From positions 22,093 to 86,092 of the forward strand of contig JBDRML010000016.1 of NCBI GenBank assembly GCA_043812195.1: DNA of 64,000 nt, written 5' to 3'. The notes below the pieces were generated by a model. That model was not told where the DNA came from and searched no databases. It saw nothing but the letters and a program-made list of their open reading frames with translations. Made by a program: the position numbers and the translations under genes. How positions within the stretch are numbered: position 1 is the stretch's first letter; each line of letters opens with the position of its first letter. This DNA comes from Candidatus Woesearchaeota archaeon. Its GTDB lineage: Archaea > Nanobdellota > Nanobdellia > SCGC-AAA011-G17 > PNOQ01. Shown here one piece after another: positions 10,870 to 35,238 of the stretch.

Positions 10870-10870
10870 A

Positions 10871-14876: not shown

Positions 14877-14929
14877 ATAAATTATTTTTTATTTTTTTAT
14901 AATTCTAAAATAAGAAAAATAAAATAAAA

Positions 14930-15676: not shown

Positions 15677-15677
15677 C

Positions 15678-16723: not shown

Positions 16724-17386
16724 TTATGCATCAATCTTTGATACAGCCTTATAACTATTCTTAAATGAATAAATAACCATTAAACTTGTTATCAACAAAT
16801 AACCTAAATTTAATACCATCATTAAACCAAGTATTTTACCAATAATTATCATAGGCAAATAACCTTCAAAACTTAAAGCAATTCTTATTACTTCGTTCTG
16901 TTTTCCACCGACTTTCTTACTTTTTTTGTTTGTAGTTTTTAGTAGATTATCTTTGTATCTAAAAGAAATCTGACTAAGCAAATAAAATATTGCAGATGTT
17001 ACACCAACCACTAAATAACCACTTCCAATTCCAACACCTATTAAAAGCGTTATTAAAGATACAATATGAAACATGTGGTCTAAATATGCATATGTCTTAT
17101 TGTTTAAGTTATTTGTTGAGTGTGCTATTGCACCATCTACGCAATCTAAAATATGGCCCAAAATTAAGAACAACATTCCAATCCAAAACTCATTAGATAA
17201 AAAGAAAATTATTGCAGGTATTCTACTTAAGATTGCTAACCAAGTGATTGTATCTGGCTTTATCTTTAACCATTTAAATGAATAATAGAATGGAATTGAA
17301 AGTATTATTAAACAACAATATACTATCTTCCATATTAAAGGATTATTCTTAAACTTCCTTTTTATGGTTACTTCGTATAGTTCCAA
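16724..17386 (-). CDS. CDP-alcohol phosphatidyltransferase-like membrane protein (third, divergent copy)
   Basis: DCVDGAIAHSTNN...GVGIGSG is a D-x2-D-G-x2-A-[RH] variant; multi-TM. Confidence 0.4.
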   Translation of the reverse strand: MELYEVTIKRKFKNNPLIWKIVYCCLIILSIPFYYSFKWLKIKPDTITWLAILSRIPAIIFFLSNEFWIGMLFLILGHILDCVDGAIAHSTNNLNNKTYAYLDHMFHIVSLITLLIGVGIGSGYLVVGVTSAIFYLLSQISFRYKDNLLKTTNKKSKKVGGKQNEVIRIALSFEGYLPMIIIGKILGLMMVLNLGYLLITSLMVIYSFKNSYKAVSKIDA

Positions 17387-21146: not shown

Positions 21147-21920
21147 TTAATATTCAACTTTGAAAGTATTTTCTAAAGCTGTGGGCCCATGAGAAAACAC
21201 ACGAGTCCCTTCAGCCATTGTTTCGAGTATTATTCTATCCATAAATTCTCTTTGTGAAGGTAAGGTTCTACCAGTTTCACCTAATTTAGGTTTATAAAAA
21301 TAATTACCACCATAATAACTAGAATCACTAGAAACCTCATTACTAAATTCAACACCATACAAATGAATTGAAGATGCACCCATGACATGAGCGACTTGTA
21401 GAGCCATACATGCACTTGTACCCCCAACATTAATCGCCTTTTGATGTCTTCTAGAAACTGGAACAGGATTCTTAGATCCAGCAATATAATGCATTAATAA
21501 ATGTGGCTCAGAAGGGCTAGGTAATTGTAAAAAAAGATTATTGATATGTTCATCTCTGCTAGAAACCCATCTTAATCCTAATTCAGTAGTTTTAACTAAA
21601 CTAGGTTTCTCATCCATATATTTTTCATATTCATTAATAAATTTATTCCTAATCTTTTCATCAGGATAAAATTTGGGAGAGTAAATAGCTGAATGTGGTT
21701 TAATTATACATTGCACATCCTCATCCAAATCCAAAAACCAACTTCTAGTATGTGCAGCTTGGTCTCCAGAAAGAAAAATATCTCTTCCATGAAGTAAATA
21801 ACCCGCACCATTAACACCAATAACAATGTCTTCCCCTCTATTAAAAATCATAACAGAAGGAGCAGAACCTAAAACAGCAATTTCAGTACCATAATAAATA
21901 TTTCTTACTTTATCAAGCAT
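21147..21920 (-). CDS. GT42-like sialyltransferase-fold protein (Cst-II / DUF115 / Maf-like); candidate nonulosonic-acid transferase
   Basis: IAVLGSAPS (compare GNGPSL) and INVGGTSACMALQVAHVMGASSIHLYGVEF (compare Cst-II ITSGVYMCAVAIALGYKEIYLSGIDF). Visibly more GC-rich than its neighbours. Confidence 0.45.
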   Translation of the reverse strand: MLDKVRNIYYGTEIAVLGSAPSVMIFNRGEDIVIGVNGAGYLLHGRDIFLSGDQAAHTRSWFLDLDEDVQCIIKPHSAIYSPKFYPDEKIRNKFINEYEKYMDEKPSLVKTTELGLRWVSSRDEHINNLFLQLPSPSEPHLLMHYIAGSKNPVPVSRRHQKAINVGGTSACMALQVAHVMGASSIHLYGVEFSNEVSSDSSYYGGNYFYKPKLGETGRTLPSQREFMDRIILETMAEGTRVFSHGPTALENTFKVEY

Positions 21921-22947
21921 TTTTTAACGTTTTAATCAGTTTTTTCTCTAATCCTAAAGCAATTTCTGTTCTATTATTGAAAAAATCATATCTTCTACTA
22001 AAATAATCTCTCTCAGCATCTGAAGACGTAGGTAAATATCCTTCACCCCACGTAACTATTAAACTATTTAACCCAACATCAGCAAGCATTAAGGGTAAGC
22101 TCTCAATCTGATCTCTAATAGAAGGATCAAATTTCCTATATTCAGAAAAACATTCTTTTAATTTATCCCAATCAACCCTATCATCAAGAGCAATATCTTT
22201 TGTTTCTTTATCAAAACAATATAAATCAGAGGTATGTATCGCATCAGTCCCTCTAAAATCCATTCTAACTAAATCATAATCAACAACAGCAACCAATTTG
22301 CCATTGTTTATCAACGCGCACCCTAAATTAAAGTCGCCATGAATCAATTGCTTAGGTTTACCTAATTTAGGTAATCTTTCTTCAACTGTACTTATCATCT
22401 CTCTAACTCTACTAACCTGAGAAAGAACATATTCATCCGTATCATTACATGCACTTCTGGGCAAATGTGGTTCTAATTCTTCAAGCAATCTTCTATGGGA
22501 TTTAAAAAATCTTGGCAAAGCTTCATATTCTTCTAAATTCTCAAATTGGCCCAATGCTAAATTAAATCTAGCTAAACCATGAAATGCTAAATTTATTTCT
22601 GATTGAACAGATTCTCTTGGATGTCTCCCTTCAACAAATGTCATCAAGGAATAAAGGTTATTTTCAAAAGTCGTTAAGTTTTCTCCATTTATACTCTTCA
22701 AAATCTTTGGTGTAGGCACTCCACAAGCATAAACAAAATCATTTAACCTTAGTTGAAATTCTGCTATTTGGGGTGTAAAATCATAAGAATATTTCTTAAC
22801 AACATACTTAGATGCATTAGAATCAGTCAAAAAAACGACTTGGTTTTTGTCTCCTTTTTCAGGAAATTCTTGATTTGGGGTAAAATCTAAATCATATGCA
22901 CGTGATAAAAAATCAATCTCTTCCGGTGTAAATTTTTCCCTTAACAT
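21913..22947 (-). CDS. phosphotransferase of the aminoglycoside-phosphotransferase / choline-kinase family
   Basis: Brenner motif HGDFNLGCALINNGK and VVDYD (D-x-E/D) motif. Confidence 0.6.
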   Translation of the reverse strand: MLREKFTPEEIDFLSRAYDLDFTPNQEFPEKGDKNQVVFLTDSNASKYVVKKYSYDFTPQIAEFQLRLNDFVYACGVPTPKILKSINGENLTTFENNLYSLMTFVEGRHPRESVQSEINLAFHGLARFNLALGQFENLEEYEALPRFFKSHRRLLEELEPHLPRSACNDTDEYVLSQVSRVREMISTVEERLPKLGKPKQLIHGDFNLGCALINNGKLVAVVDYDLVRMDFRGTDAIHTSDLYCFDKETKDIALDDRVDWDKLKECFSEYRKFDPSIRDQIESLPLMLADVGLNSLIVTWGEGYLPTSSDAERDYFSRRYDFFNNRTEIALGLEKKLIKTLKNA

Positions 22948-23045
22948 AAAAAAAGAATTTAACGACTACTTATAAAGTTTACTAATATTAAAAAAATTAG
23001 AAATTATTCCACAAGCTTTTTAAACAAATATCATTTCTCAAACTC

Positions 23046-23795
23046 ATGCAAAACAATAAAGTATTAGCTATAATCCCTGCAAGAGGTGGTTCTAAAGGAA
23101 TTCCAAGAAAAAACATAAAACCATTTCTAGGCAAACCATTAATAACATACACAATTAAATTAGCATTATCTTGTCCAGAAATAGACAAAGTAATTGTTTC
23201 TACAGATGACGAAGAAATAGCTCAAATTTCTAAAGAAGCTGGAGCAGAAATACCTTTCATAAGACCTGAAGAATTGGCAAGAGATGATACACCAGCCATT
23301 CCTGTATTCAGACATGTTATAAAATTCTTAGAAGAAAAAAACGAACATTATGAAAATATATTAATTCTAGAACCAACAGCACCACTAAGAACAAAAGAAC
23401 ACATTTTACAAACAATAAAAACACTAAAAGAAGAAGATGTTGAAACAGTAGTAAGCGTCAGAAAATTTGATATAGATTTCACAGATGTACTTGAAAAAAA
23501 TGAAAACAATTATCTAACACCTTTTTTAGGAACTAAAACAACAATCAGAAGACAAGATACAAAAGATGTCTACATAATGGATGCAGCAATCTACGGAGTC
23601 AAAAGAGATGCATTAATGGATGAATCATTAATCATGCTTAACCCATACAAAGGAAGAAATCCACAATTAAAAACAAAAATGGTATTATCAAATCCAAATC
23701 TATCTTGTGAGATTGATAATGAAGAAGATTGGGAATATGCTGAATTTTTATACAACAAATACAAAAAAGAAATAGAAAGAGAAAAAAATGATTAA
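23046..23795 (+). CDS. neuA: CMP-nonulosonic acid synthetase (acylneuraminate cytidylyltransferase family)
   Basis: LAIIPARGGSKGIPRKNIKPFLGKPLITYTI N-terminal motif of CMP-NeuAc/CMP-Kdo synthetases. Confidence 0.8.
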   Translation: MQNNKVLAIIPARGGSKGIPRKNIKPFLGKPLITYTIKLALSCPEIDKVIVSTDDEEIAQISKEAGAEIPFIRPEELARDDTPAIPVFRHVIKFLEEKNEHYENILILEPTAPLRTKEHILQTIKTLKEEDVETVVSVRKFDIDFTDVLEKNENNYLTPFLGTKTTIRRQDTKDVYIMDAAIYGVKRDALMDESLIMLNPYKGRNPQLKTKMVLSNPNLSCEIDNEEDWEYAEFLYNKYKKEIEREKND

Positions 23796-24501
23796 CATAA
23801 TAGGTCCATCTACTGGATGGTTATACGCAATTGGAACAAATACATTAGAAGAACAAGAAAAAATAATAAAAGAAGCAAATGCAAACGCATTTGAAATTTC
23901 ATTCGAGCCAGAAGTACCAAGAATTAGATCTTTATTAAATGGAAGCTTTAATGGTTTCAAATATAGATCAATGCATCTACCTGAAATAGATCCAGCAAAA
24001 CCTCTAGAAGCACAATTAGGAGCAATGAAATCAGTAATAAGCAAACATAAAATAGAAACAGGAGTAATTCATCCTTGTGATGTCTCTTCAAGAGATTACT
24101 GGAGAAGAATGGTTACTTACACAATTCCTGTAGCAGCAGAAAATATGGACAAAAATAAACCAAGCGGATTCAAATTAGAAGAACTAAGAGAATTAAACGA
24201 AATTTATGGAGTAAATTTTGTATTAGATGTTCAACACGCATATGAACATGATCCAACTATGAATTATGCTAAAGAATTATTAAATATGATGGAACCTAAT
24301 TTAAAACACCTACATGTTAGTGGAGAAACAGAAGACAACTGTCATTCATTAGTATATAAAGCAAGAAACGCAGATACAATAACAGATTTCATAGGAACAG
24401 TATTATCAAGAAAGGAAGTTCCGATAATACTTGAAGGACAGTATTCAAATGCAGAAGAATTAAAAACAGAAATAGATTTCCTAAATGGTGAATTAAAATG
24501 A
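23788..24501 (+). CDS. hypothetical protein, possibly TIM-barrel sugar-phosphate isomerase/epimerase-like
   Basis: Lies within the sugar-modification operon; His/Glu-containing segments (HLHVSGETED). Weak. Confidence 0.25.
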   Translation: MINIIGPSTGWLYAIGTNTLEEQEKIIKEANANAFEISFEPEVPRIRSLLNGSFNGFKYRSMHLPEIDPAKPLEAQLGAMKSVISKHKIETGVIHPCDVSSRDYWRRMVTYTIPVAAENMDKNKPSGFKLEELRELNEIYGVNFVLDVQHAYEHDPTMNYAKELLNMMEPNLKHLHVSGETEDNCHSLVYKARNADTITDFIGTVLSRKEVPIILEGQYSNAEELKTEIDFLNGELK

Positions 24502-25808
24502 TAGAACCTAAAAAATTAACATTAACAAAATCTTATGATTATTGGAAAAGAGCCGTAGAAGTAATTCCAAATGGTTGCATGACCATAAGCAATGGACCAA
24601 TAAGTTACATAACAAATGTTTCACCAATATACATTCAAAAAGGAAAGGGATGTAATGTATGGGATGTAGATGGAAATAAATTTTTAGATTTAGCTCCAGG
24701 AGGTTATTTAAAAATATTAGGCCATAACTACAAACCATTAACAAAAGCCATAATAAAACAAGTAAAAGATGATTCAATTTTCCAAATGCCACATCCGCTA
24801 GAAGTAGAAACAGCAGAAACAATAGTAAAGACAATTCCTAGTGCAGAAATGGTTAAATTTGCAAAAAACGGTGCAGATGTTTTAACTATGGGTGTAAGAG
24901 CAGCTAGAGCATACACAAACAGAGACATGATAGCTTCAGAAGGTTACCATGGAATACACGATTGGTATATCGGAACCACAGAAAGAAACAAAGGAGTTCC
25001 AGAAGCAGTCAAAAGATTAACAGCCACATTTAATTACAATGATATAGATTCACTTAAAAAAATATTCGAAAAATATCCAGACCAGATAGCATGCGTAACT
25101 TTAGAACCAGTTCAATTATCAGAGCCAAAAAATAACTTTTTACATCAAGTTAAAAAAATCACACATGAAAATGGCGCAGTATTAATGTTTGACGAGATAA
25201 TAACTGGATTCAGATTTTCACTCGCTGGAGCACAAGGTTATTTTGATATAAAACCAGATTTGTCAGCATTTGGCAAAGCAATGTCAAACGGATTCTCCTG
25301 TTCAGCTTTAGTTGGAAAATCAGATATAATGATGGAATTTGAAAAAGGTGCATTTTTCTCAACAACATACGGTGGAGAAACAACTGGACTAATAGCAGCA
25401 AAGAAAACAATAGAAATAATGAAAGAAAAAAATGTTCACGACCATCTTTGGAAAATGGGATCCATACTAAAAAATGGAATAAATAAAATCATAAAACAAA
25501 ATAATCTACAAGACCATTATTATATTCATGGATATCCTGTTTGGACAGTAATAAAAGCAAAAGGTGATGATAAAATAGGAACAGAAAACGAAAAAACTGG
25601 CTTATTGCAACAAGAAGCAATGCAAAGAGGAATGTTAGCAGGATTATTCCATGGATTATGCTACGCACATAAAGAAAAAGATATTCAAAAAGGATTAGAG
25701 ATTTACGAAGATTCTTTCAAAAAAGTTAAAAAGTACATTAATGAAGGGGATATCAAAAAACATCTAAAGGGAGAATACGGAGGAAAAGTATTCAGAAAAG
25801 TAGGTTAA
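24498..25808 (+). CDS. class III PLP-dependent aminotransferase (glutamate-1-semialdehyde aminomutase-like)
   Basis: FDEIITGFRFSLAGAQGYF ... AFGKAMSNG (PLP-lysine region) motifs. Confidence 0.65.
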   Translation: MIEPKKLTLTKSYDYWKRAVEVIPNGCMTISNGPISYITNVSPIYIQKGKGCNVWDVDGNKFLDLAPGGYLKILGHNYKPLTKAIIKQVKDDSIFQMPHPLEVETAETIVKTIPSAEMVKFAKNGADVLTMGVRAARAYTNRDMIASEGYHGIHDWYIGTTERNKGVPEAVKRLTATFNYNDIDSLKKIFEKYPDQIACVTLEPVQLSEPKNNFLHQVKKITHENGAVLMFDEIITGFRFSLAGAQGYFDIKPDLSAFGKAMSNGFSCSALVGKSDIMMEFEKGAFFSTTYGGETTGLIAAKKTIEIMKEKNVHDHLWKMGSILKNGINKIIKQNNLQDHYYIHGYPVWTVIKAKGDDKIGTENEKTGLLQQEAMQRGMLAGLFHGLCYAHKEKDIQKGLEIYEDSFKKVKKYINEGDIKKHLKGEYGGKVFRKVG

Positions 25809-25809
25809 T

Positions 25810-26613
25810 ATGAAATCAATAAAAGAACTATCAGATTTAAATAAAAAAGTAGCTATAATAACTGGAGCAGTCGGCAATCTGGGAATAGTTCATGCAGAAG
25901 CTCTAGCAGAATTAGGTTGTAATTTAGCACTAATAGATATTTTAGAAGATAAAGCAAGAGAATTAGCTCAAGACATTTCAAATAGATTTGGAGTTAAAGC
26001 TATAGGTCTAAAAATAGATTTATTCAAAAAAGAATCAATTGAAGAAACATTTCAAAAAATACATAATGAGATGGGAAGGATAGACATTCTAATTAACAGC
26101 GCGCAATATTCACCACCAGAAGATATAGAACCTGTAGAAACTTTTGATAAAGATGTTTGGGATAAAGTAATGGCAATAAATGTGACTGGAACTTTCTTGT
26201 GTTGTCAACAAGCATTAAAATATATGAAAGAAGGTGGATCAATTCTAAACATGGGCTCAATAATGGGAGTGATTGCACCAGACAGAAGAATCTATGAGGG
26301 TTCAACTTATGATGGAAAACAAATGAACAGCCCATTAGTATATTCAACTAGTAAAGCAGCCATAATTGGATTAACAAGATATTTAGCAGTAGATTTCGCA
26401 AAGAAAAATATCAGAGTAAACTGCATATCAGCAGCAGGCTTTGAAAGCGGCCAAACAGATTTATTCAAATCAAAATATAAAGACAAAATTCCAATGGCTA
26501 GAATGGCAAACAAAGAAGAACTTAAAGGAGCTATAGCCTATTTATGTTCAGATAATTCATCTTTCGTAACAGGTCATAATTTAATTTTAGATGGCGGCAT
26601 GTCTAGCTGGTAG
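25810..26613 (+). CDS. short-chain dehydrogenase/reductase (SDR)
   Basis: Gly-rich NAD(P) motif ITGAVGNLG; YSTSK catalytic Y-x3-K. Confidence 0.8.
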   Translation: MKSIKELSDLNKKVAIITGAVGNLGIVHAEALAELGCNLALIDILEDKARELAQDISNRFGVKAIGLKIDLFKKESIEETFQKIHNEMGRIDILINSAQYSPPEDIEPVETFDKDVWDKVMAINVTGTFLCCQQALKYMKEGGSILNMGSIMGVIAPDRRIYEGSTYDGKQMNSPLVYSTSKAAIIGLTRYLAVDFAKKNIRVNCISAAGFESGQTDLFKSKYKDKIPMARMANKEELKGAIAYLCSDNSSFVTGHNLILDGGMSSW

Positions 26614-27748
26614 ATTTTTTCAGTCTATAACTTTTATCATAATCTCCAGCCGAAAAATATCCTTTATACGCAGGGAAGAATTTATCATTAAATTCAATAT
26701 TATTCTCTTTACAGTAATTTCTTCTTAAATCAACAAATTTACCATAAACTTCTTGGTTAAAAATAATACCAGCACCTCTAAACATTCCTCTATCATCAGA
26801 AAACCCATATTTAAAATGATACAAAGAATCTCCAGGAGAATTTCCAGCACCTAAATGCAACCTTTTAACTCCTTTTTCCTTTAGATACTTAAAAGCCTCC
26901 CATAAAATAAGATTAGCAGGAGATAACGTCCAATAATCTTTATCTGAACCAGAGAAATGATAATGTGCGTAATCATTTCTATGAATAAAAAAAGAGCCAG
27001 CTATTACTTTCCCATCATATTTAGCAATAAACAAAGAAGCATCATCACCTAAAAAATCCATTGTATTTTTATAAAACTCAAATGGAAAAAAATACTTCTT
27101 TCCAGTATTAACAGCACGCATTCTTCCCAAATATAAATCAACAAAAGATTCAAGATCTCTCATATCTTTACTTTTATAAACTTGAATGCCACTTTTTTCA
27201 GCTTTTCTTATTTGATTTCTTGTTTTCTTCTTCATACTCATCAATATTTCATCAAGACTTTTAGTCAAATCAACATAAACCACATCTCTCTCATCAATAA
27301 GATTAACATGATCTTTAAAATCAAGATAATTATCAGTCATTGGGTGAAATCTAACAAATCCAGAAACTATATTATTCTTTAAACAATATTTATTCAAACT
27401 GGCCATAGATTCTTCAATAAGATCTTCTTTTTTACTTTGATTAGAACATTTTACAATTGGTCCATTGTATCCATAAACAGAAATTAAATCATAAAAATCA
27501 GAATTTTCAATGTAGGGCAAATCAATTTTTCTTTTCATAAAAGGAATTAAAACATAATCATTTTCATCCCCATAAACAAACATAAACGCCTCACCATTAA
27601 AAGCATCATCAATGTCTTTTCCATAACTCTGCTCATAAATTTTATTGTATCCACAAGAATAATACACATCACAGCCACAAGAACCATCTATTAAAGAATT
27701 CCACTCTTTTTCATCCTTTGTAGTTAAAACTCTGTTAGTGTAAACCAT
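26603..27748 (-). CDS. FemAB-like / GNAT-fold acyl- or aminoacyl-transferase
   Basis: 381 aa, size and pattern of FemAB-family transferases. Weak motif evidence. Confidence 0.35.
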   Translation of the reverse strand: MVYTNRVLTTKDEKEWNSLIDGSCGCDVYYSCGYNKIYEQSYGKDIDDAFNGEAFMFVYGDENDYVLIPFMKRKIDLPYIENSDFYDLISVYGYNGPIVKCSNQSKKEDLIEESMASLNKYCLKNNIVSGFVRFHPMTDNYLDFKDHVNLIDERDVVYVDLTKSLDEILMSMKKKTRNQIRKAEKSGIQVYKSKDMRDLESFVDLYLGRMRAVNTGKKYFFPFEFYKNTMDFLGDDASLFIAKYDGKVIAGSFFIHRNDYAHYHFSGSDKDYWTLSPANLILWEAFKYLKEKGVKRLHLGAGNSPGDSLYHFKYGFSDDRGMFRGAGIIFNQEVYGKFVDLRRNYCKENNIEFNDKFFPAYKGYFSAGDYDKSYRLKKSTS

Positions 27749-28775
27749 TTATCACCCCAACAATTCTATACATATCTCTCAAATTATACCTTTGATCTAT
27801 AGGGATAGTTAAAATATTATCTGAAACATCCCACGACTCTGAAAATTCTTCTTTACTAACATCTTTAGGCAAGATCCAATGAATAGAGGGATAAATCTTA
27901 TTCTGTATCAAAAACTTTCTAATTTTATCTCTATCTTTAACTATAATAGGACATCCTAAAGGACAAACATTCTTAGAAATCTTAGGAAATAAAACCTTAA
28001 CATTTTTCATAGTTTTTAGTTTATTAACTAAGTATAAATAATTTCTTCTTCTCTTAAAAATAATCTCTCTCAAATCTATTCTATTCAATAAAAACTTAGA
28101 AATTCCAGACATTGCAACAGGCCTATCATAACTATCAATAGATCTATCTTCAGCTTCAACAAAAAATTTCCTATAATGTTTCTTAAGAAAAATAAAATTC
28201 TTTAACAAACCACCAATTAACCTATTAGAAACAAAATCAGTTTTAGTATGATTAACCTTAACTCTCTTATTAAAATTGCCTAAAAGAAATGCACCATCTG
28301 GCAAAGGTAAAAACTTTCTATAACTATTAAATACATAATCTCCAACAAAAGGATAGCCAGATAAAAATGATTGAACATAATCCTCAACTAATTTAATTTC
28401 ATTTTTTTCACAAATTTCTTTTATTTTATTTATTTCAGGCTGAATAAACCCAAAGTAATGAATAACTAAAACAAATTTAGGTTTTTTCTTTAAAACTTTC
28501 TTCTTTAAATCAACAATATCAACATTCAAATTCTTATCAATTTTATAAAATCCACAATCTAACCCCCATTTCTTTAATGGATCTAAAATAGAATCACAAA
28601 AATAAGAAGGCAAAAGAATATAAGAATCTTTATTTAATCCAAGATCTTTAATAATATAATCTATACAATCCCTTCCGCTAGTTAAAAGAATAGAATTTCT
28701 TAAAATATTATTCCTCTTACTATTAAAAAACAATTCAAATCCTATTTCAAAATCACTACCAATTTCTCTAATCAT
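27735..28775 (-). CDS. divergent DegT/DnrJ/EryC1-like PLP-dependent sugar aminotransferase (or dehydratase)
   Basis: 346 aa; N-terminal GSDFE...LTSGRDCIDY resembles the DegT family. Confidence 0.35.
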   Translation of the reverse strand: MIREIGSDFEIGFELFFNSKRNNILRNSILLTSGRDCIDYIIKDLGLNKDSYILLPSYFCDSILDPLKKWGLDCGFYKIDKNLNVDIVDLKKKVLKKKPKFVLVIHYFGFIQPEINKIKEICEKNEIKLVEDYVQSFLSGYPFVGDYVFNSYRKFLPLPDGAFLLGNFNKRVKVNHTKTDFVSNRLIGGLLKNFIFLKKHYRKFFVEAEDRSIDSYDRPVAMSGISKFLLNRIDLREIIFKRRRNYLYLVNKLKTMKNVKVLFPKISKNVCPLGCPIIVKDRDKIRKFLIQNKIYPSIHWILPKDVSKEEFSESWDVSDNILTIPIDQRYNLRDMYRIVGVINGLH

Positions 28776-28777
28776 TT

Positions 28778-29908
28778 TTAATAGGTCATTTTTTTATTTA
28801 ATAGCTTCTCACCTAATTCTATCTCTTCTAATACTTCACAAATATTTTTTTCTACATTCTCAGAATGATAAGGATTAACCATATCTTTTAACTTTTCTTT
28901 AAATTCATTAGACAAAGCCAAAGAAATAGCTTCTCTAATCTTTTCTTCATCATGTGGAACATCAATAACATTGCCAGCTCTTTCACGTCCTTCTTCCCTA
29001 ATACCTATATTAATACAAGGCAATTTAAACATAGGGGTTTCAACAATACCTGAACTAGAATTTCCAACCATTAAAGAAACATTTCTCAAAATCCCCATAT
29101 AAACTTCCGGACTCAGATTTTTGAATACATGAAAATTAGGTAAATATTCATATCTTTTAATAGCCTCTATTATCTTATCAGAACCAGGATCATTACTTGG
29201 ATAAATAACAACAACCTGTTTATTTAAATCTCTAACAACTTTAAGGGTTAATTCCATGTATTCTCCTGCTTTCTCAAACTCAGTACTAACAGGGTGTTGC
29301 AAAACCAATATAGTCTCCTTAGAAAAATCTACTCCAATTTTCCTTTCTAACTCTTCTTTTGAATCATATTCTTTATACAAAGGTGTTCCAGTCATAAAAA
29401 CTCTCCAAGGTTCTTCACCCATTTTAATTATTCTTTCAGCGCTTTGATAAGAACCAGGTAAATGGATATGTGCAAATTTAGTTATAGAATGTCTAGTAGA
29501 ATCATCAATAGATTTAGAAACATCACCACCACAAGCATGAGCTACAGGAATATTCAAATGTGCAGCAGCAATAGCAGCAGGTAATTTCTCAAAACGATCT
29601 CCTTCTATTAATAATATATCTGGCTTAATTTCATCTAATGCTTTAGTAATTTCAATTAAAAATTTACCAAAAAAAATCGGTGTATTTAGATTACTTTCTT
29701 GGGTATCAACTCCTATATCAATTACCTTAGCAATCTTCAATCCAGTTTCCCTAACAAAATCCAAAGTATATCCATGTTCTCTAGATAAATGCATACCAGT
29801 AACAATTAAAGATAATTCTAAATTAGAATTTTCATCAATAGCTTTTAAGGTAGAATAGAGTAATCCAAACTCAGATCTAGATCCTGTAACACAAACAATC
29901 TTTCTCAT
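28778..29908 (-). CDS. neuC: UDP-N-acetylglucosamine 2-epimerase (hydrolysing), NeuC-like
   Basis: KIVCVTGSRSEFGLL N-terminus; IEGDRFE...PVAHACGGDVSKSIDDSTRHSITKFAHIHL core motifs. Confidence 0.8.
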   Translation of the reverse strand: MRKIVCVTGSRSEFGLLYSTLKAIDENSNLELSLIVTGMHLSREHGYTLDFVRETGLKIAKVIDIGVDTQESNLNTPIFFGKFLIEITKALDEIKPDILLIEGDRFEKLPAAIAAAHLNIPVAHACGGDVSKSIDDSTRHSITKFAHIHLPGSYQSAERIIKMGEEPWRVFMTGTPLYKEYDSKEELERKIGVDFSKETILVLQHPVSTEFEKAGEYMELTLKVVRDLNKQVVVIYPSNDPGSDKIIEAIKRYEYLPNFHVFKNLSPEVYMGILRNVSLMVGNSSSGIVETPMFKLPCINIGIREEGRERAGNVIDVPHDEEKIREAISLALSNEFKEKLKDMVNPYHSENVEKNICEVLEEIELGEKLLNKKMTY

Positions 29909-31080
29909 TCAAAATCATCATAAGAAGCAAGCTGGTCTTTATTAACATTATGCTTCAATTTTCTACCAATAACTTCTTCATATTTATTTGCTGTAATTCC
30001 CCTAGCATCTGCTCTTTTCATAACTAAATGAGCCTCATTCAAAACAGTCCCAGCAACCAATCCATCTCTAAAAACAACAGATTTTTGTACAACTGGTTTA
30101 ATAGTAATTTCTCTTTCACAAGGTTTTTTTTCAAAAGATCCAGCAATCAAATCAAAATATTTCGCACCAATTTTCTCTTTAAGATAATCTACTCTTTTAT
30201 TAATTGGTATCTTTTCCATCTCCTTTATTTCTTGGATCATTTCTTTCAGTTGGTCTACTGATAATGACGCTTTATGATCTGGGCCATATGCCATTCTATC
30301 ATACGTAAAATGTTTTTCAATAAGCTGCGCACCTAATGCAACTGCAACTAAAGAAACATGTATTCCAATTGTATGATCAGAATACCCAAATAAAGTTCCT
30401 AATTCATCTTTCATAGTTAACATAGCATTTATGTTAGAATCTTCATAACGAGCAGGATAATCGGTAGTACAATGTAAAAATATAACATCTTTATTACCTT
30501 GGCTATATATTGCTTCTTGAGCAGCTTTAATCTCTTTGATATTTCCCATACCTGTAGAGACAACTAATGGTTTCCCTAAAGATGCTAAAAATTTCAAATA
30601 AGAAATATTAGTTAATTCCCCAGAACCAACTTTAATAGCAGGAACCTTAGTTTCATTTACTAAAAACCTAGCACTCTTTTCCTCATCAGGAGTTGACATA
30701 AAAATTATTCCTTTTTCATCACAATATTTTTTTAATCCAACAAAATCATCATAACTTAATTCTAATTTTTTAATCATATCAAACTGAGTTTCACCAGCAC
30801 CCGTCTGTTCCTCTTGATAAGAAGCCTTAGCTGTATCTGGTAAACAAAGTTCTTCAGTTATCCATGTTTGAAACTTAACAGCATCAGCGCCAGCATCTTT
30901 AGCAATATCTATTAACTGTTTAGCCTTCTCAACATCTGCATCATGGCAAACTCCAGCCTCAGCAATTATAAAAACAGGATTTCCAGGACCTATTTTTTTC
31001 CCAGTTATGTTTAACTCCATTAAATATAGAAACAAATAACTCCTTATAAAAATTATGTAAAGATGTTCTAAAACTAACAA
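29905..31080 (-). CDS. neuB: N-acetylneuraminate (nonulosonic acid) synthase, NeuB-like, with C-terminal SAF domain
   Basis: GPGNPVFIIAEAGVCHDADVEKAKQLIDIAKDAGADAVKFQT. Confidence 0.85.
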   Translation of the reverse strand: MLVLEHLYIIFIRSYLFLYLMELNITGKKIGPGNPVFIIAEAGVCHDADVEKAKQLIDIAKDAGADAVKFQTWITEELCLPDTAKASYQEEQTGAGETQFDMIKKLELSYDDFVGLKKYCDEKGIIFMSTPDEEKSARFLVNETKVPAIKVGSGELTNISYLKFLASLGKPLVVSTGMGNIKEIKAAQEAIYSQGNKDVIFLHCTTDYPARYEDSNINAMLTMKDELGTLFGYSDHTIGIHVSLVAVALGAQLIEKHFTYDRMAYGPDHKASLSVDQLKEMIQEIKEMEKIPINKRVDYLKEKIGAKYFDLIAGSFEKKPCEREITIKPVVQKSVVFRDGLVAGTVLNEAHLVMKRADARGITANKYEEVIGRKLKHNVNKDQLASYDDFE

Positions 31081-31089
31081 AAATAATAC

Positions 31090-31887
31090 TCAAAGAGCAA
31101 TAGAATATCCACAATCTACTAGAATATTTTGTCCAGTTATTGCACTACTTCTATCAGAAAGCAAAAATAAAACAGAGTCAGCAACTTCCTCAGGCCTAAC
31201 ACCTCTGTGCAAAGGAGCCCTTTCATTAAAACGATCAATCAAATCCTTCTTCTCTTTACTACTAGAACAAGCTTCTAAAACCTTACGTGTTTCAACATTT
31301 CCAGGAGAGACCGTATTAACCCTTATTCTTTTCTCTCCAAAAGTATTTGCATAAGCTCGAGTCATAGCTCCAAGACCTCCTTTAGAAATTGCATATAAAA
31401 CAGTATTAGGATTTTGCATATCTGCATTAATAGAACTTATGTTAACAATAGATCCACCTTCAGACATTTTAGGATACAATAATTCTATCAAATTGAATGG
31501 TGCTCTAGTGTTCACTGAAATAACTCTATCAAAAGATTCAATAGATCTTCCACCATGAGAGTCATCCTTTCCTAAAATAGCAGCATTATTCACTAAGCCA
31601 TAAATAGTATCAAATCTATCACTATCAAAAATTTCTTTCATTCTATCAAAATCAGAAACATCGCCTTGAAAATAATCAATTTTTTGGTGAGGAACCAATA
31701 AATTACTAAGTTCTGATTTATCAAATTCCAAAGAATCTATTCCAATAACATAAGCATTTTCTTGCACCAATTCACTAGAGATTATTGCACCTATTCCACT
31801 TCCAGCACCAGTAACTACAACCTTTTTTCCTTTTAAATTTAAATTCATTTTAAAATAATCTCTCAATAACTTTATGTTCAAGCCCAT
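31090..31887 (-). CDS. short-chain dehydrogenase/reductase (SDR)
   Basis: KKVVVTGAGSGIGA; YAISKGG Y-x3-K. Confidence 0.75.
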   Translation of the reverse strand: MGLNIKLLRDYFKMNLNLKGKKVVVTGAGSGIGAIISSELVQENAYVIGIDSLEFDKSELSNLLVPHQKIDYFQGDVSDFDRMKEIFDSDRFDTIYGLVNNAAILGKDDSHGGRSIESFDRVISVNTRAPFNLIELLYPKMSEGGSIVNISSINADMQNPNTVLYAISKGGLGAMTRAYANTFGEKRIRVNTVSPGNVETRKVLEACSSSKEKKDLIDRFNERAPLHRGVRPEEVADSVLFLLSDRSSAITGQNILVDCGYSIAL

Positions 31888-32602
31888 TTAACCCCTCTTG
31901 AACCCTTGGTTCTTTTAAGGGAAGCATCCATAATCTACCATTATTCACATGTTCATTATTTTCATCCAACATAGGAAACTTAGCTATATATTTTAAACCT
32001 ACTAACTCTTGCATTTTTTCTGCAAATTTAGTAGATGCTAAATCATCAGACTCTATAGAAGTATATGTAGTAATATGTTCAGCACCTTCTTGTTCAGAAA
32101 GCCTCACTGCAGCCAAATAAGCAAATGTTCCAAATCCTTTTCTTCTTACACTCTCCAAAAAAGCCATTTCCCAACAATGTGCTTGATTAGACCATTCTCC
32201 ATGAATCTCTAATTCAGAATCTCCATTTTTATCTTTTCCAGCCTTATAATGATAACCATCTGTAGGTTTAGCATGAACCCTAACACCCACAATCTCATCA
32301 TTAGAATCATAACACATTACAACACTATTTCCTACTTTATCTTCAAACTCCCTACTCCTAATATAAAACTCGTCTCTTAAATGAACATCTCCTCTTCTAA
32401 CTAAATCAATAACACGTTTAGGCAAGGGATTCCCTTCACAATCAGTCAAATCCATTTCAGTAATTACACAATTATAAAGAGTGTCATTATAAACGTTCTT
32501 AGACAATCTCAAAAGATCATTAGCAAGCCCATCAACACTACCTTGTCTAAAAACATGACCATCTTTGGTAGGTTGGCCCAAATAATCTAAAACTTTTTTC
32601 AT
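31850..32602 (-). CDS. hypothetical protein, possible GNAT-type N-acetyltransferase
   Basis: RRKGFGTFAYLAAVR resembles the acetyl-CoA binding motif; context in a nonulosonic acid operon. Weak. Confidence 0.3.
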   Translation of the reverse strand: MKKVLDYLGQPTKDGHVFRQGSVDGLANDLLRLSKNVYNDTLYNCVITEMDLTDCEGNPLPKRVIDLVRRGDVHLRDEFYIRSREFEDKVGNSVVMCYDSNDEIVGVRVHAKPTDGYHYKAGKDKNGDSELEIHGEWSNQAHCWEMAFLESVRRKGFGTFAYLAAVRLSEQEGAEHITTYTSIESDDLASTKFAEKMQELVGLKYIAKFPMLDENNEHVNNGRLWMLPLKEPRVQEGLNGLEHKVIERLF

Positions 32603-32723
32603 AATTTAAAGAAATTTACAACCGTTTTTAAAGCTTATGGTGGCATTTTAAAGTGTATAAAAACCGAACATATAGTCTTTAATTACACATTATTTATAAA
32701 CAAAACCACTTTTCCAAAAATGA

Positions 32724-33830
32724 ATGATACCAATTACAAAACCAACATTACCAAAATATGAAGAGGTAGAAAAAGAGCTAAGAAATATAATTGAAAGTGG
32801 CATGATTACAAATGCCAAATATGTAAGAGAATTAGAAAAAAATGCAGCAGAATATATTCAAATCCCAGACACTGCGGCACTCTCATCATGCACATCTGGT
32901 TTAATCCTAACACAAAAACTATTAAATCTAAAAGGAGAAGTAATACTTCCAAGTTTCACATTTCATGCAACTGCACATTCATTAGTTTGGAACAATTTAA
33001 AACCTAAATTCGTAGACATAGAAGAAAATCACTACAATATAGATCCACAAAAAGTAAATGAAGCCATAACTCCAAACACATCAGCAATTCTAGCAGTACA
33101 CATGTTTGGTCATCCAGCAGATACAAAAGCACTTCAAGAAATAGCAAAAGATAACAACTTAAAATTAATTTTTGATGCTGCACACGCCTTCGGCTCTAAA
33201 ATAAACAATTTAAACATAGGTAGATTTGGAGATGCAGAGGTCTTCAGTCTATCACCAACAAAATTATTAACCGCAGGTGAAGGAGGAATAGTATCTTCCA
33301 ATAATAAAGTGTTAATAAAAAAATTAAAAATAGCAAGAAATTACGGAGATGATGGAAGTTATAATTGTGAATATTCTGGATTAAATGCAAGAATGTCTGA
33401 ATTAAATGGAATTTTAGGCATTAAAACATTACAACAATTAGACCAAAATATAGAAAATAGAAACAAGCTAGCAGAATTCTACAAACAAAAATTATCAAAA
33501 TTAAAGATAGGTTTTCAAAAAATAGCTCCAAATGTAAAAACTACTTACAAAGATTTCTCTTTATATATTAACCCAGAAGAAATAGGCATTAACAGAGATG
33601 AATTATGTAATCAATTGGAAAAGAAAGGGATTATATCTAAAAAATACTTTTACCCTCCAGTCCACAAACAAACAGCATTTAAAGAATTCAACAATTTAAG
33701 GTATCCAATTACAGAAAAAGTTTCCACAAACGTTTTAAGTGTACCACTTTACTCCCACATGAAAAAAACAGAGGTAGAAAAGGTGTGTGATGCTATTTCT
33801 ACTATAATTCAAGAAAATGGAAGAAAATAA
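32724..33830 (+). CDS. DegT/DnrJ/EryC1/StrS family PLP-dependent sugar aminotransferase
   Basis: 368 aa; FDAAHAFGSK and SLSPTKLLTAGEGG (PLP-lysine region). Confidence 0.8.
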   Translation: MIPITKPTLPKYEEVEKELRNIIESGMITNAKYVRELEKNAAEYIQIPDTAALSSCTSGLILTQKLLNLKGEVILPSFTFHATAHSLVWNNLKPKFVDIEENHYNIDPQKVNEAITPNTSAILAVHMFGHPADTKALQEIAKDNNLKLIFDAAHAFGSKINNLNIGRFGDAEVFSLSPTKLLTAGEGGIVSSNNKVLIKKLKIARNYGDDGSYNCEYSGLNARMSELNGILGIKTLQQLDQNIENRNKLAEFYKQKLSKLKIGFQKIAPNVKTTYKDFSLYINPEEIGINRDELCNQLEKKGIISKKYFYPPVHKQTAFKEFNNLRYPITEKVSTNVLSVPLYSHMKKTEVEKVCDAISTIIQENGRK

Positions 33831-35238
33831 CAAGATAGACATGATACTTATACAAGAAAATGCAACTTTAAGAGATGTAATGAACAATATTGATAATTCT
33901 GGATTAGGCATATGCATAATAATAAACAATGAAAAGAAAATAAAGGGAATATTATCTGATGGAGATATAAGAAGAGCAATTCTAACAGGACACTCAATAG
34001 AAGATTCCGCATCTAAAATAATGAATAAAAATCCAACTATAGTTACAGGAAACTTCTCACTAAAAGAATTAGAAAAAACAATAAAAGAAAAAAAAATAAA
34101 CGGAAAAATACCAATAATAGATGAAGATGGGAAAATTATAGATTTAGCAATAATACCAGAACAAAAAATTAGATTCTTATCAAAACATAACGTAGCTGAA
34201 ATGCCAATGAAAAAAATACTGATCACAGGTGGTGCCGGTTATTTAGGATCAATCCTTTGTAGAAAGTTGTTAGAAAGGGGTTATGAAGTAAGAGTTTTAG
34301 ACAATTTAACATATGGAGATGATTCAATAAAAGATCTTTATGATAATCCAAATTTCGAACTAAAAATAGGAGACATTAGGCATATTGAAAACATAAGTAA
34401 AAATATACAAGACGTAAATGCAGTTGTTCATTTAGCAGGCATAGTAGGAGATCCTGCATGTGGGTTAGATCCACAACAAACCATAGAACAAAATCTTTTA
34501 GCAACTATGGCATTAGCACAAACTTGCAAGCATTTCCAAGTAAACAGATTTTTATTCGCATCAAGCTGTTCAGTTTACGGAGAAAATAATGATGTTCTTA
34601 CAGAAGAATCAAAATTAAATCCAATATCAGTTTATGGAAAAGATAAAATAGAAAGTGAAAAAGCTATCTTAAATTTAGCAAATGAAAACTTTTCCCCAAC
34701 AATACTAAGAATGGGAACACTATATGGTCCTTCTTATAGGATGAGATTTGATTTAGTATTGAACACAATAACTACATTAGCAATAAAAGAAGGAAAATTC
34801 TGCATATTCGGTGGAAACCAATGGAGACCTATGTTACATGTAAACGATGCGGCAGATGCTTACATAAAAGTTCTTGAAGCCCCGCTAAACAAAATAGGAA
34901 GAGAAATATTTAATATTGGTTCTGACGAAGGAAACCACAAAATCATAGATATTGGGAAAAAAGTAAAAGAAATTATTCCAGAAGCAATAATGGAAATAAA
35001 TGCAGAAGAAGTAGACGAAAGAAACTATAGAGTAAGTTTCAAAAAACTAAGAGAAACTCTAAGTTTTGAACCAAAAAAAACTATAAAAGATGGAATAATT
35101 GAAATTAAAACTATGACAGAAAGAGGAGAACATATAGACTTCAGAAATCCAAAATATAATAATTATATTTTTCTTAAAAATAAAAATTTAAAAGAATATA
35201 GGAGTAATATAAACTTCCAAGAAAGCAGCAAACAATAG
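33817..35238 (+). CDS. CBS-domain pair fused to NAD-dependent nucleotide-sugar epimerase/dehydratase (extended SDR)
   Basis: N-terminal CBS pair; KKILITGGAGYLGSILCRKL Rossmann motif; YGKDK catalytic Y-x3-K. Confidence 0.75.
   Translation: MEENNKIDMILIQENATLRDVMNNIDNSGLGICIIINNEKKIKGILSDGDIRRAILTGHSIEDSASKIMNKNPTIVTGNFSLKELEKTIKEKKINGKIPIIDEDGKIIDLAIIPEQKIRFLSKHNVAEMPMKKILITGGAGYLGSILCRKLLERGYEVRVLDNLTYGDDSIKDLYDNPNFELKIGDIRHIENISKNIQDVNAVVHLAGIVGDPACGLDPQQTIEQNLLATMALAQTCKHFQVNRFLFASSCSVYGENNDVLTEESKLNPISVYGKDKIESEKAILNLANENFSPTILRMGTLYGPSYRMRFDLVLNTITTLAIKEGKFCIFGGNQWRPMLHVNDAADAYIKVLEAPLNKIGREIFNIGSDEGNHKIIDIGKKVKEIIPEAIMEINAEEVDERNYRVSFKKLRETLSFEPKKTIKDGIIEIKTMTERGEHIDFRNPKYNNYIFLKNKNLKEYRSNINFQESSKQ

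Follow-up and report, generated by a model that had tools for sequence, protein, structure and literature searches.

A run of sugar-pathway genes in the genome of a tiny, uncultured Candidatus Woesearchaeota archaeon (DPANN) is, we conclude with moderate confidence, an island that makes and transfers a CMP-activated nonulosonic acid (NulO), a nine-carbon sugar resembling sialic acid. The run holds 16 sugar-pathway genes in unbroken order at 21147-35238 of the window (the whole 64,000-nucleotide stretch of DNA analysed), and neighbouring genes overlap or are separated by at most 121 nt, a packing far beyond chance. All the genes named in an earlier sequence-only reading were found at their positions, with strong family matches for those listed except the 21147 protein, whose match is weak. 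That reading's NulO synthesis set (NeuC, NeuB and a CMP-synthetase, plus amino-sugar and acyl-transfer enzymes), its class for NeuB, its fold for the 21147 protein and its sequon-rich 37584 product stand; its 4,6-dehydratase label is not supported by the catalytic motif, its single transferase at the end of the block leaves out a second candidate, and its gene list missed a GNAT acyltransferase and a PF01261-type TIM barrel. Leftward, the functional unit reaches at least to 17349 and so includes two more genes, for a GT-B enzyme and for a flippase of the Wzx type. The features are as follows.

17349-19292, minus strand: fusion of an N-terminal SAM methyltransferase and a C-terminal GT-B glycosyltransferase, TagF/KpsS-like (Pfam Methyltransf_23 and Glyphos_transf)
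19627-21120, plus strand: Wzx/MOP-family flippase for a lipid-linked glycan (Polysacc_synt 95 bits; MurJ/MatE matches; many hydrophobic segments)
21147-21920, minus strand: soluble single-domain DUF115/MptE-like protein, 257 aa; candidate CMP-nonulosonate transferase (weak PF01973 match)
21913-22947, minus strand: APH-fold small-molecule kinase (APH 78.8 bits)
23046-23795, plus strand: CMP-nonulosonate synthetase, NeuA/LegF/PseF-type (CTP_transf_3 99.8 bits; TIGR03584 PseF 182 bits, below the 205.7 cut-off)
23788-24501, plus strand: xylose-isomerase-like TIM barrel, PF01261 family (assigned through homologues)
24498-25808, plus strand: class III (GSA-aminomutase-like) aminotransferase (Aminotran_3 146.8 bits; PRK06209 411 bits, below the 486 cut-off)
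25810-26613, plus strand: classical SDR oxidoreductase, PtmA-like (adh_short_C2 188 bits; NF050062 PtmA 138 bits, under cut-off)
26603-27748, minus strand: FemAB-like/Acetyltransf_6 acyl- or aminoacyl-transferase (PF13480 75.3 bits; FemAB 53.9 bits)
27735-28775, minus strand: divergent DegT-like PLP enzyme (PF01041 47.8 bits, residues 27-138)
28778-29908, minus strand: NeuC/LegG-type hydrolysing NDP-HexNAc 2-epimerase (NeuC_NnaA TIGR03568 389 bits, exceeding the 235.9 cut-off)
29905-31020 (ORF to 31080), minus strand: NeuB/LegI-type nonulosonate synthase (PF03102 NeuB 289 bits, and SAF)
31090-31887, minus strand: second classical SDR oxidoreductase (adh_short_C2 186 bits)
31850-32602, minus strand: GNAT N-acyltransferase (weak match, PF00583 26.5 bits)
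32724-33830, plus strand: canonical sugar 4-aminotransferase, DegT/PseC/LegC-like (PF01041 DegT 315.7 bits)
33817-35238, plus strand: CBS pair fused to an extended SDR (CBS 48 bits, Epimerase 167 bits)
37584-39593, minus strand: candidate acceptor surface protein (hydrophobic segments at residues 9-38, N-terminal, and 637-669, C-terminal membrane anchor; 44 N-X-S/T sequons)
42478-44685, minus strand: S-layer-like secreted protein (PF05124 S_layer_C 35.4 bits)

By family assignment, NeuC, NeuB and the CMP-ulosonate synthetase should alone suffice for CMP-NulO synthesis. NeuB, whose start codon is probably the ATG at 31020 rather than the TTG at 31080, scored 380 bits on the equivalog model TIGR03569 (NeuB_NnaB; cut-off 399.65) and 220 bits on PseI, and its PDB relatives are SpsE (172 bits), N. 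meningitidis NeuB (165 bits) and PseI (133 bits). DAHP synthase models gave only about 30 bits, confirming that the enzyme is not a KDO8P/DAHP synthase. It carries the motif KVGSGE, and in a crude NJ tree it clusters with synthases of bacterial legionaminic-type clusters (L001, L003 and L005) and of the DPANN locus L026. NeuB and NeuC share a tight minus-strand operon with the GNAT, SDR, DegT-like and FemAB-like genes. Among the accessory enzymes, the class III aminotransferase has aminoglycoside C-6' aminotransferases among its PDB relatives, and the divergent DegT-like protein matches best to 7b0d, a scyllo-inositol transaminase (42 bits), with a candidate PLP lysine within NSYRKF. The Pfam scan of the TIM-barrel protein itself returned no matches; PF01261 is present in about half of its 129 homologues, those named to a taxon are few and mostly Patescibacteria, and NulO genes were absent around the homologues in the two contexts examined (L014 and L015).

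The canonical DegT and CBS-SDR genes overlap by 14 nt, and the pair is kept in L025 and L026. Against equivalog models the DegT protein scored 262 bits for DesI, 216 for PseC and 186 for LegC, each below its own cut-off. Its partner had been called a CBS-fused 4,6-dehydratase/epimerase; the CBS fusion and an epimerase-like signature are there, but the acid/base pair of a 4,6-dehydratase is not. The motif reads ASSCSVYG where the LegB-like proteins of L003 and L005 have TSTSEVYG, and at the dehydratase Asp/Glu positions the window protein and 3 of 3 DPANN homologues carry Cys/Ser; homologues at 43-48% identity that keep the motif occur in L019, L025 and L026. The GalE model (146 bits) outscored LegB (99 bits) as well as PseB and RmlB, and the best PDB match and nearest solved structure, 6vo6 (149 bits), which we take to be Cj1427, has NTNSGYG at the motif position and is not a dehydratase-type match. 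From these sequence features we predict that the CBS-SDR acts as a C4 dehydrogenase or epimerase and not as a 4,6-dehydratase. Given its missing acid/base residues and its likeness to GalE and to C4 dehydrogenases of the 6VO6 type, the enzyme probably does not deoxygenate C6, so the 9-hydroxyl may remain on the sugar, and a canonical 9-deoxy legionaminic/pseudaminic route is not demonstrated; the basis for reading no dehydration is one motif together with PDB entry 6vo6.

The 21147 protein had been assigned a Cst-II/DUF115 sialyltransferase fold. The fold, common to Maf/DUF115 and the GT42 Cst enzymes, was borne out, but GT42 membership by sequence was rejected: Pfam gave no GT42 match and a PF01973 score of 19.5 bits against a gathering score of 34.6, and the protein is a minimal member of the DUF115/MptE-like superfamily. 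Its structure model is confident (pLDDT 92.9), and in fold comparisons this predicted model matched a Maf nonulosonate transferase best, with GT42 (Cst-I among them) and GT29 sialyltransferases also matched. When the family profile was compared with PDB sequences, each of the top eight matches was to Cst-I/II and covered the nucleotide-sugar binding motif. Remote relatives are PF01973 domains fused to GT2, epimerase or FkbM methyltransferase domains, a glycan context. Of 11 independent loci with 21147 homologues, 6 have NeuB within 10 kb of the homologue, and the nearby synthases are of three types (GSGE, GSGD and PseI-like ASFE), which fits a transferase rather than a pathway step; in four loci the gene stands amid housekeeping genes with no NulO genes within reach.

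Two other readings of the transfer step were weighed. It is very unlikely that the 21147 protein is an MptE/TPK-like pyrophosphokinase that, with the APH-fold kinase, phosphorylates a small molecule such as a host-salvaged cofactor or sugar precursor. The MptE-like name of the Pfam family and the homologues among housekeeping genes would fit, as would the overlap of the kinase gene by the DUF115-like gene in the window (8 nt), L012, L010 and L021; yet the family profile matched GT42 and found neither MptE nor Maf among PDB sequences at E up to 10, the model aligned over 170 residues with Maf (at the higher Z) against 142 with MptE, the domain fusions of the remote relatives speak for glycans, the neighbourhood is free of pterin and thiamine genes, and in L019, L020 and L025 the gene is near NeuB with the kinase absent. 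Possible, if doubtful, is that the GT-B domain of 17349-19292 transfers the NulO, the DUF115-like protein being a second NulO transferase that extends the first residue, or modifying another acceptor with the kinase. Glyphos_transf/Capsule_synth GT-B proteins are encoded immediately next to NulO genes in the bacterial legionaminic-type L001 (614 aa), in L019 (492 aa) and in L026, as are Capsule_synth proteins in L009 and L010/L021. L026 has a full pathway (acetyltransferase, kinase at 47% identity, CMP-synthetase, NeuB at 43%, NeuC, DegT at 53% and CBS-SDR at 48%) with a GT-B enzyme of 619 aa directly after the CBS-SDR gene and no DUF115-like gene within 10 kb, and the window protein is 23% identical to that enzyme over 242 residues. 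In the capsule loci of Acinetobacter, KpsS-like GT-B enzymes have been proposed to transfer pseudaminic acid. Against this, the Glyphos_transf match is weak (29 bits, residues 493-584; His-Pro motif KMHPSE), no PDB sequence relatives were found, and the family is named for CDP-glycerol phosphotransferases, so that, with two CDP-alcohol phosphatidyltransferases nearby, the enzyme could build a phosphodiester-linked polymer; the DUF115-like genes beside three synthase types would also be left unexplained. As a candidate NulO transferase, rival or second, the GT-B domain just outside 21147-35238 is as plausible as the 21147 protein; naming 21147 alone overlooked it, and its type holds the transferase position in relatives' clusters.

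As to the sugar, ordinary N-acetylneuraminic acid is unlikely, with NeuC, NeuB and the CMP-synthetase working alone and the DegT, CBS-SDR, SDRs, other aminotransferases and acyltransferases making a different amino sugar that enters the same glycan. Those three enzymes are a self-sufficient Neu5Ac pathway, the NnaA and NnaB model scores above favour it, two simpler DPANN loci, L010 and L021, have only NeuB, NeuC, CMP-synthetase, kinase and DUF115 genes (a Wzx homologue at 30% identity also occurs in these related loci), and the CBS-SDR lacks the dehydratase signature. The shared operon argues against it, as do the legionaminic-type affinity of NeuB and the recurrence of CBS-SDR, DegT, NeuB, NeuC and CMP-synthetase as a unit, whole in L026 and partial in L019 and L025. 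Canonical 9-deoxy legionaminic acid, which we consider rather doubtful, would need the CBS-SDR to be a working 4,6-dehydratase despite its motif, or the GMD (GDP-mannose 4,6-dehydratase) encoded at 9892-10869 (406.8 bits) to give the 6-deoxy-4-keto intermediate. The L026 CBS-SDR does stand in the place of LegB among LegC/H/G/I/F-like enzymes that are otherwise a complete set, a GMD gene sits directly inside the L019 NulO cluster, and the best models for the DegT protein act on 4-keto-6-deoxy sugars; the motif, model scores and nearest structure of the CBS-SDR all speak against dehydration, however, and the substrate of GMD is GDP-mannose, which would make NeuC needless.

The sequon-rich 37584 product has 44 sites against 17.5 +/- 3.4 in shuffles, a strong enrichment, whereas the 42478 protein is not enriched (8 sequons, 6.5 expected). 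No STT3/AglB oligosaccharyltransferase was found among the Pfam-scanned window ORFs, a set without several smaller ones. That the NulO carries an extra acyl or amino-acid decoration and goes onto the 37584 or 42478 protein, as the sequence-only reading had proposed, is inference only.

In the pathway we propose, the translationally coupled CBS-SDR and DegT, with the GNAT enzyme, would first convert an NDP-HexNAc to a 4-acylamido sugar, and legionaminic-type pathway logic would then give a 5,7-diamino NulO. With C6 probably not deoxygenated, the 9-hydroxyl may stay on the sugar, and the kinase could plausibly act on this group or on the hexose precursor at its 6-hydroxyl, while the FemAB-like enzyme, the extra SDRs and two aminotransferases (class III and divergent DegT) may add further amino or acyl decoration. 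On the cytoplasmic side, the 21147 protein would take the NulO from CMP-NulO and pass it to a lipid-linked glycan or straight to protein, with the 17349 GT-B domain possibly a second NulO transferase; the adjoining Wzx would flip the glycan, which would end on surface glycoproteins such as the 37584 product. The exact sugar, the role of the kinase and the acceptor are all inferred. Some of the island's enzymes are non-standard, and the pathway is a known one in a new variant, not fundamentally new, by which this archaeon probably transfers a nonulosonic acid to its surface glycans.

By its gene content, the window carries a nonulosonic acid (NulO) island with legionaminic-type logic in a DPANN archaeon, with three predicted departures from the textbook pathways: a non-dehydratase SDR fused to a CBS pair (CBS-SDR), an APH-fold kinase, and a putative transferase that is a minimal DUF115-like protein. 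The sequence is AT-rich (G+C ~29%) and encodes the archaeal markers eRF1, PCNA, and an S-layer-like protein; the products of 21147-21920 and of the adjacent kinase gene match proteins of a Candidatus Woesearchaeota metagenome-assembled genome at 100% identity. An Rfam scan found no RNA genes in the window. Every gene that the sequence-only reading had listed for the interval 21147-35238 was found at its place, along with two that it had not listed, a GNAT and a TIM-barrel gene. The interval genes form four transcription units, tightly packed and partly overlapping:

Unit 1, 21913-22947 (-): APH-fold kinase
Unit 1, 21147-21920 (-): DUF115-like protein, gene overlapping the kinase gene by 8 nt
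Unit 2, 23046-23795 (+): CMP-synthetase
Unit 2, 23788-24501 (+): TIM-barrel protein
Unit 2, 24498-25808 (+): class III aminotransferase
Unit 2, 25810-26613 (+): SDR, PtmA-like
Unit 3, 31850-32602 (-): GNAT, a weak match
Unit 3, 31090-31887 (-): SDR
Unit 3, 29905-31020 (-): NeuB
Unit 3, 28778-29908 (-): NeuC
Unit 3, 27735-28775 (-): divergent DegT
Unit 3, 26603-27748 (-): FemAB-like protein
Unit 4, 32724-33830 (+): DegT
Unit 4, 33817-35238 (+): CBS-SDR, gene overlapping the DegT gene by 14 nt

The NeuB ORF opens with a TTG, and homology begins only near residue 21-36, at an ATG (coordinate 31020). Its product matches PF03102 at 289 bits and SAF at 32.9 bits, and shows the metal-site motifs LHC...SDHT. 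DAHP synthase models reach only ~30 bits (at most 32), compared with 380 bits on TIGR03569 (NeuB_NnaB), slightly under the 399.65 cut-off of that model; the proposed NeuB-like identity thus holds, and the protein does not fall among the KDO8P/DAHP synthases. The nearest solved structures are SpsE and Neisseria meningitidis NeuB, with PseI more distant, and the window enzyme has the motif KVGSGE where the PseI-like synthases of L019, L020, and L025 have KIASFE (L numbers denote comparison loci from databases). Bacterial comparators came from a contig scan with NeuB, which yielded five loci at 36-44% identity (L001-L005) and no close archaeal relatives. A crude neighbour-joining tree, built from the gathered synthases and with no biochemically characterised references, places the window NeuB with that of the DPANN locus L026 and with the five bacterial synthases, three of which (L001, L003, L005) sit in clusters bearing legionaminic-type hallmarks: a PglD-like acetyltransferase, a CBS-nucleotidyltransferase, or a LegB-like dehydratase with DegT.

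The remaining core enzymes are assigned by similar comparisons. NeuC scores 389.4 bits on TIGR03568 (NeuC_NnaA; cut-off 235.9) and 72 bits on the non-hydrolysing WecB model. The 23046 cytidylyltransferase belongs, as judged from its model scores, to the NeuA/PseF/LegF family, with 99.8 bits on PF02348, 182 on the PseF model (cut-off 205.7), and at most 51 on KdsB models. A pseudaminic-acid route was considered and excluded, because the window has a NeuC-type enzyme rather than any PseG-like gene, and because the PseB model (51 bits, cut-off 407.75) and the PseI model TIGR03586 (220 bits, cut-off 340.25) score low; no PseG, PseB, or PseI signature is present.

The logic and most of the families are shared with the legionaminic pathway (Campylobacter jejuni LegB/C/H/G/I/F; UDP-based in Legionella and Acinetobacter), namely a DegT 4-aminotransferase, an N-acyltransferase, a NeuC-type hydrolysing 2-epimerase, a NeuB-type synthase, and a CMP-synthetase. 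No Leg equivalog model reaches its cut-off for the window proteins; DegT scores 186 bits on the LegC model (cut-off 420), and the DesI and PseC models score higher. Where LegH is an LbH acyltransferase and L026 has a PglD-like one, the window has no LbH acetyltransferase, only the weak GNAT. The window also differs by its additional genes (the APH kinase, the class III aminotransferase, a second DegT-like enzyme, two SDRs, the FemAB-like protein, and the TIM-barrel protein) and by the replacement of the LegB-type 4,6-dehydratase with a CBS-fused GalE/C4-dehydrogenase-like SDR.

This replacement bears on the 4,6-dehydratase label that the CBS-SDR had been given, which its catalytic motif does not support. 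The SDR domain scores highest on the GalE model (146 bits), followed by dTDP-glucose dehydratase (110), LegB (TIGR04180; 99, cut-off 475), and PseB, and it lacks the Thr/Ser-Asp/Ser-Glu triad. In RmlB/GMD-type enzymes, an acidic residue preceding VYG is the base required for 5,6-elimination. The catalytic strand of the CBS-SDR reads ASSCSVYG, with Ser at the position of that acidic residue and Cys before it, whereas the LegB-like proteins beside DegT and NeuB in L003 and L005 have TSTSEVYG. Homologues with 43-48% identity in L019, L025, and L026, encoded there too alongside NeuB and DegT, share the CBS pair and the motif S[ST]CSVYG. The closest solved structure, 6VO6 (149 bits, ~38% identity as counted from the alignment), which we take to be C. 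jejuni Cj1427, also has Ser where dehydratases have Glu. Cj1427 is a sugar-nucleotide C4 dehydrogenase of heptose modification in C. jejuni; it frees its 4-keto product, with no dehydration, for the enzymes that follow (PMC10680097). The window protein differs from this type in its N-terminal CBS pair, its coupling to an aminotransferase, and its substrate, presumably an NDP-HexNAc instead of GDP-heptose. These residues suggest that the CBS-SDR is probably not a 4,6-dehydratase. It would instead supply a 4-keto sugar to DegT without removal of the 6-hydroxyl, and from this motif-level evidence we infer a dehydratase-free step leading to a nonulosonic acid that keeps its 9-hydroxyl. A GDP-mannose 4,6-dehydratase encoded at 9892-10869, an enzyme also found inside the L019 cluster, could still provide a 6-deoxy route.

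The second departure is the 21913 kinase, which has intact APH-fold catalytic motifs with conserved HGDFN and DYD. The canonical 9-deoxy Leg and Pse pathways are not known to contain a kinase. A PDB sequence search with the protein gave no useful match, and its homologues number only five, all from DPANN; the window and L026 each combine the kinase with the dehydratase-less SDR. Asp replaces the residue equivalent to N. meningitidis NeuB Glu134 (giving GSGD) in four of the five loci with an APH kinase (L009, L010, L021, and L026, all DPANN) and in none of the eight kinase-less loci (L001-L005, L019, L020, L025), while the window synthase retains Glu (GSGE) despite its nearby kinase. The E134D substitution is typical of eukaryotic and archaeal synthases and has been proposed to reflect use of ManNAc-6-phosphate (PMC8208679), and the co-occurrence of GSGD with the kinase fits the idea that it marks the use of phosphorylated sugars. 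As in the animal sialic-acid route, which proceeds through ManNAc-6-phosphate (GNE kinase domain, NANS, NANP), the window has a kinase by NeuC, NeuB, and a CMP-synthetase, although the animal kinase has a ROK fold and that of the window an APH fold. A dehydratase-free order could run from a CBS-regulated C4 dehydrogenase to an aminotransferase and then to an APH-fold sugar kinase, in parallel to the animal pathway. At the window locus the phosphosugar route is no more than suggestive, given that the synthase has Glu there and that the window shows no obvious phosphatase, while L009 encodes a ComB-like one.

Several accessory enzymes would fit a further amino group plus a decoration of aminoacyl or acyl type, in line with the sequence-only reading. 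The class III aminotransferase is, like aminoglycoside C-6' aminotransferases, of the GSA-aminomutase-like group and is co-transcribed with the PtmA-like SDR; our literature search on GSA-aminomutase-like enzymes in NulO clusters found nothing relevant. The NeuB operon ends with the second DegT-like PLP enzyme and the FemAB-like transferase, neither of which recurs in the related loci examined. The 237-aa protein of 23788-24501 has no PDB or Pfam match of its own, and its homologues are PF01261 TIM barrels, few of them with a taxon name and most of these from Patescibacteria (CPR bacteria). Two homologue contexts, L014 and L015, contain no NulO or glycan genes. This TIM-barrel family appears common to ultrasmall bacteria and archaea.

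The third departure is the 257-aa product of 21147-21920, a candidate CMP-NulO transferase. Alone it scores 19.5 bits on PF01973 (gathering score 34.6), but 28 of 29 family members match that model (best E 3e-7), with scores of 45-132 bits among remote relatives. The family spans 30 clusters in a set of 5.8 billion proteins and 494 representatives at E ≤0.001 among 1.84 billion, and it is small, since a metagenome scan with its DUF115 profile gave just 10 loci. The five members with a taxon name are Woesearchaeota or Nanoarchaeota, and the others are metagenome sequences. Conserved across the family are the motifs GSAPS, IGVNGAG, GGTSAC.A.Q.A..MGA.EIHLYGVEFSN, and NYFY...GE.G.T. Two tandem DUF115-like genes, 30-37% identical to the 21147 protein, occur in L022 (1-1483) and L023 (1328-2966), the latter adjoining a PtmA-like SDR; such paralogous pairs would be expected if copies serve different donors or acceptors.

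The sequence-only reading had assigned this protein a Cst-II/DUF115 sialyltransferase fold with a GT42-like function. The fold is borne out by structure matches, whereas membership in GT42 by sequence is not: the GT42 model PF06002, applied at E up to 1 to the 29 family members, matches none. In the confident AlphaFold model (pLDDT 92.9) the fold is of the modified GT-A/Rossmann type, and the protein carries the G-x-x-P-S loop near its N-terminus as well as the donor motif TS...G..EI.L.G.DF. Resemblance to the GT42 enzymes Cst-I and Cst-II of C. jejuni (PDB 1RO7, 2P2V) is marginal; they supply all of the top eight sequence matches of the family profile in the PDB, over the donor-binding motif (E 0.03-0.1), and they come first but weakly in Foldseek (E 4e-3, TM 0.36). 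The sole invariant His (H186) aligns in sequence to the EI-Y-LSG strand of Cst-II and not to His188, and the region corresponding to His188 is a low-confidence loop (190-215) bearing the conserved NYFY..E.G.T. Structure comparison of the model gave the following Z scores:

Structure comparison of the 21147 protein model
Maf: 13.1 (170 residues)
Methanocaldococcus jannaschii MptE pyrophosphokinase: 12.4 (142 residues)
SteA: 11.0
Cst-I: 10.3
Thiamine pyrophosphokinases: 7-9
GT29 sialyltransferases: 7-9

Judged on the model, the fold by itself cannot tell a sialyltransferase-like enzyme from a pyrophosphokinase, and an MptE orthologue was considered as a competing identity. MptE and Maf are both absent from the PDB matches of the family profile, even at E up to 10, and an MptE orthologue was rejected as the main reading for want of sequence relatedness to MptE or a pterin-biosynthesis context. 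Fusions and neighbourhoods tip the balance towards a transferase role. The remote relatives found by profile are multi-domain proteins in which PF01973 is fused to GT2, an SDR epimerase, or an FkbM methyltransferase. NeuB lies within 10 kb of a 21147 homologue in 6 of 11 independent loci (the window, L009, L010/L021, L019, L020, L025; L010 and L021 counted once). Elsewhere the homologue is followed by a kinase and the contig end (L012), occurs as tandem copies on short contigs (L022/L023), or sits amid housekeeping genes (L006/7/17, L008, L011, L013). Three synthase types neighbour the 21147-type gene (GSGE in the window; GSGD in L009, L010, and L021; PseI-like KIASFE in L019, L020, and L025), the pattern expected of a transferase downstream of varied donors, as with Maf, and not of one specific biosynthetic step. 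The protein has no membrane segment, and its gene and a Wzx flippase gene, which converge, are 26 nt apart. Unlike Maf proteins (PF01973/DUF115, PDB 5MU5), which are ~600 aa, carry flanking domains, and act on bacterial flagellins, the 21147 protein is a bare archaeal catalytic domain of 16% identity to Maf, and neither the Maf-type multi-domain architecture nor a flagellin substrate was found for it.

A second candidate transferase lies immediately left of the interval, at 17349-19292, where a methyltransferase is fused to a GT-B domain (Glyphos_transf, 29 bits) with a KMHPSE His-Pro motif. A PDB sequence search with the GT-B half gave no useful match. GT-B relatives with Glyphos_transf, Capsule_synth, or Epimerase_2-like signatures adjoin NulO genes in L001 (a bacterial legionaminic-type cluster), L019, L009, L010, L021 (Capsule_synth in these last three), and L026; the last has a complete pathway and a GT-B gene, with no DUF115-like gene within 10 kb. 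As a pathway companion the GT-B gene is therefore at least as consistent as the DUF115-like gene, and its product may be the main NulO transferase or an additional one. In L019, a DUF4910/DUF2172/HTH_47 protein of the CA_C2195 type (3882-5231, +) adjoins the GT-B gene; proteins of this type have been proposed to act in modified polysaccharide biosynthesis (PMC4000134).

Two acceptors had been suggested. The 37584-39593 (-) product is indeed rich in sequons, with 44 N-X-S/T sites compared with 17.5 +/- 3.4 in shuffles, and has a hydrophobic segment near its N-terminus together with a membrane anchor and Lys tail at the C-terminus, making it a convincing N-glycoprotein candidate on predicted features. 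It seems internally repetitive, with Cys modules such as FNCSAT...WNC occurring ~3 times, followed by a Thr/Ser/Asp/Gly-rich stalk and the anchor, which ends in KKKK. The S-layer-like 42478 product shows no enrichment (8 sequons, 6.5 expected). A Pfam scan that covered the window ORFs except several smaller ones gave no STT3/AglB. Downstream of the S-layer-like gene, 45040-47330 and 50610-54221 encode a Fic/DOC protein, an AAA_14/DUF4143 ATPase, and a 1203-aa protein that has a hydrophobic segment at its N-terminus and matches no Pfam family.

The upstream 15 kb (3836-17386) is envelope-related, encoding a GT2, methyltransferases, LPG_synthase_TM, two GT4s, and the GDP-mannose 4,6-dehydratase, with a phosphonate-type ABC importer at 13941-16478 flanked by two CDP-alcohol phosphatidyltransferases. 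At the edge of the glycan island, 1908-3527 (+) encodes a 539-aa protein that has ~12 hydrophobic segments, lacks sequons, and matches no Pfam family; it may act as a GT-C type transferase, polymerase, or ligase. The NulO genes of L026 also adjoin LPG_synthase_TM, methyltransferases, Wzx, and two CDP-alcohol phosphatidyltransferases, and because these envelope genes recur there the larger island seems conserved. A SpoIIM-family membrane protein at 35188-36036 (-) is 60% identical to proteins beside Wzx and NulO genes in L010 and L021.

Archaeal nonulosonic (legionaminic) acid is already known from Halorubrum sp. PV6 (PMC6137143); among the best-ranked literature matches we found no publication on nonulosonic acids in DPANN, Woesearchaeota, or Nanoarchaeota. 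The fullest reading of the locus is an undescribed 5,7-diamino NulO that keeps or phosphorylates its 9-hydroxyl, is made without a dehydratase, and is attached by the smallest known single-domain Maf-like enzyme of sialyltransferase fold, a combination that we consider rather unlikely. If true, the dehydratase-free, kinase-containing route would be a new branch of nonulosonic-acid biosynthesis and would allow the phosphosugar hypothesis for archaeal synthases to be tested (PMC8208679). The minimal DUF115-like protein, if it is a NulO transferase, would be a compact enzyme for the study and engineering of sialic-acid-like glycosylation. More broadly, nonulosonic acids shape cell-surface recognition by hosts, viruses, and partners, and because a DPANN archaeon lives attached to another cell, its surface glycans probably play a central part in that way of life.
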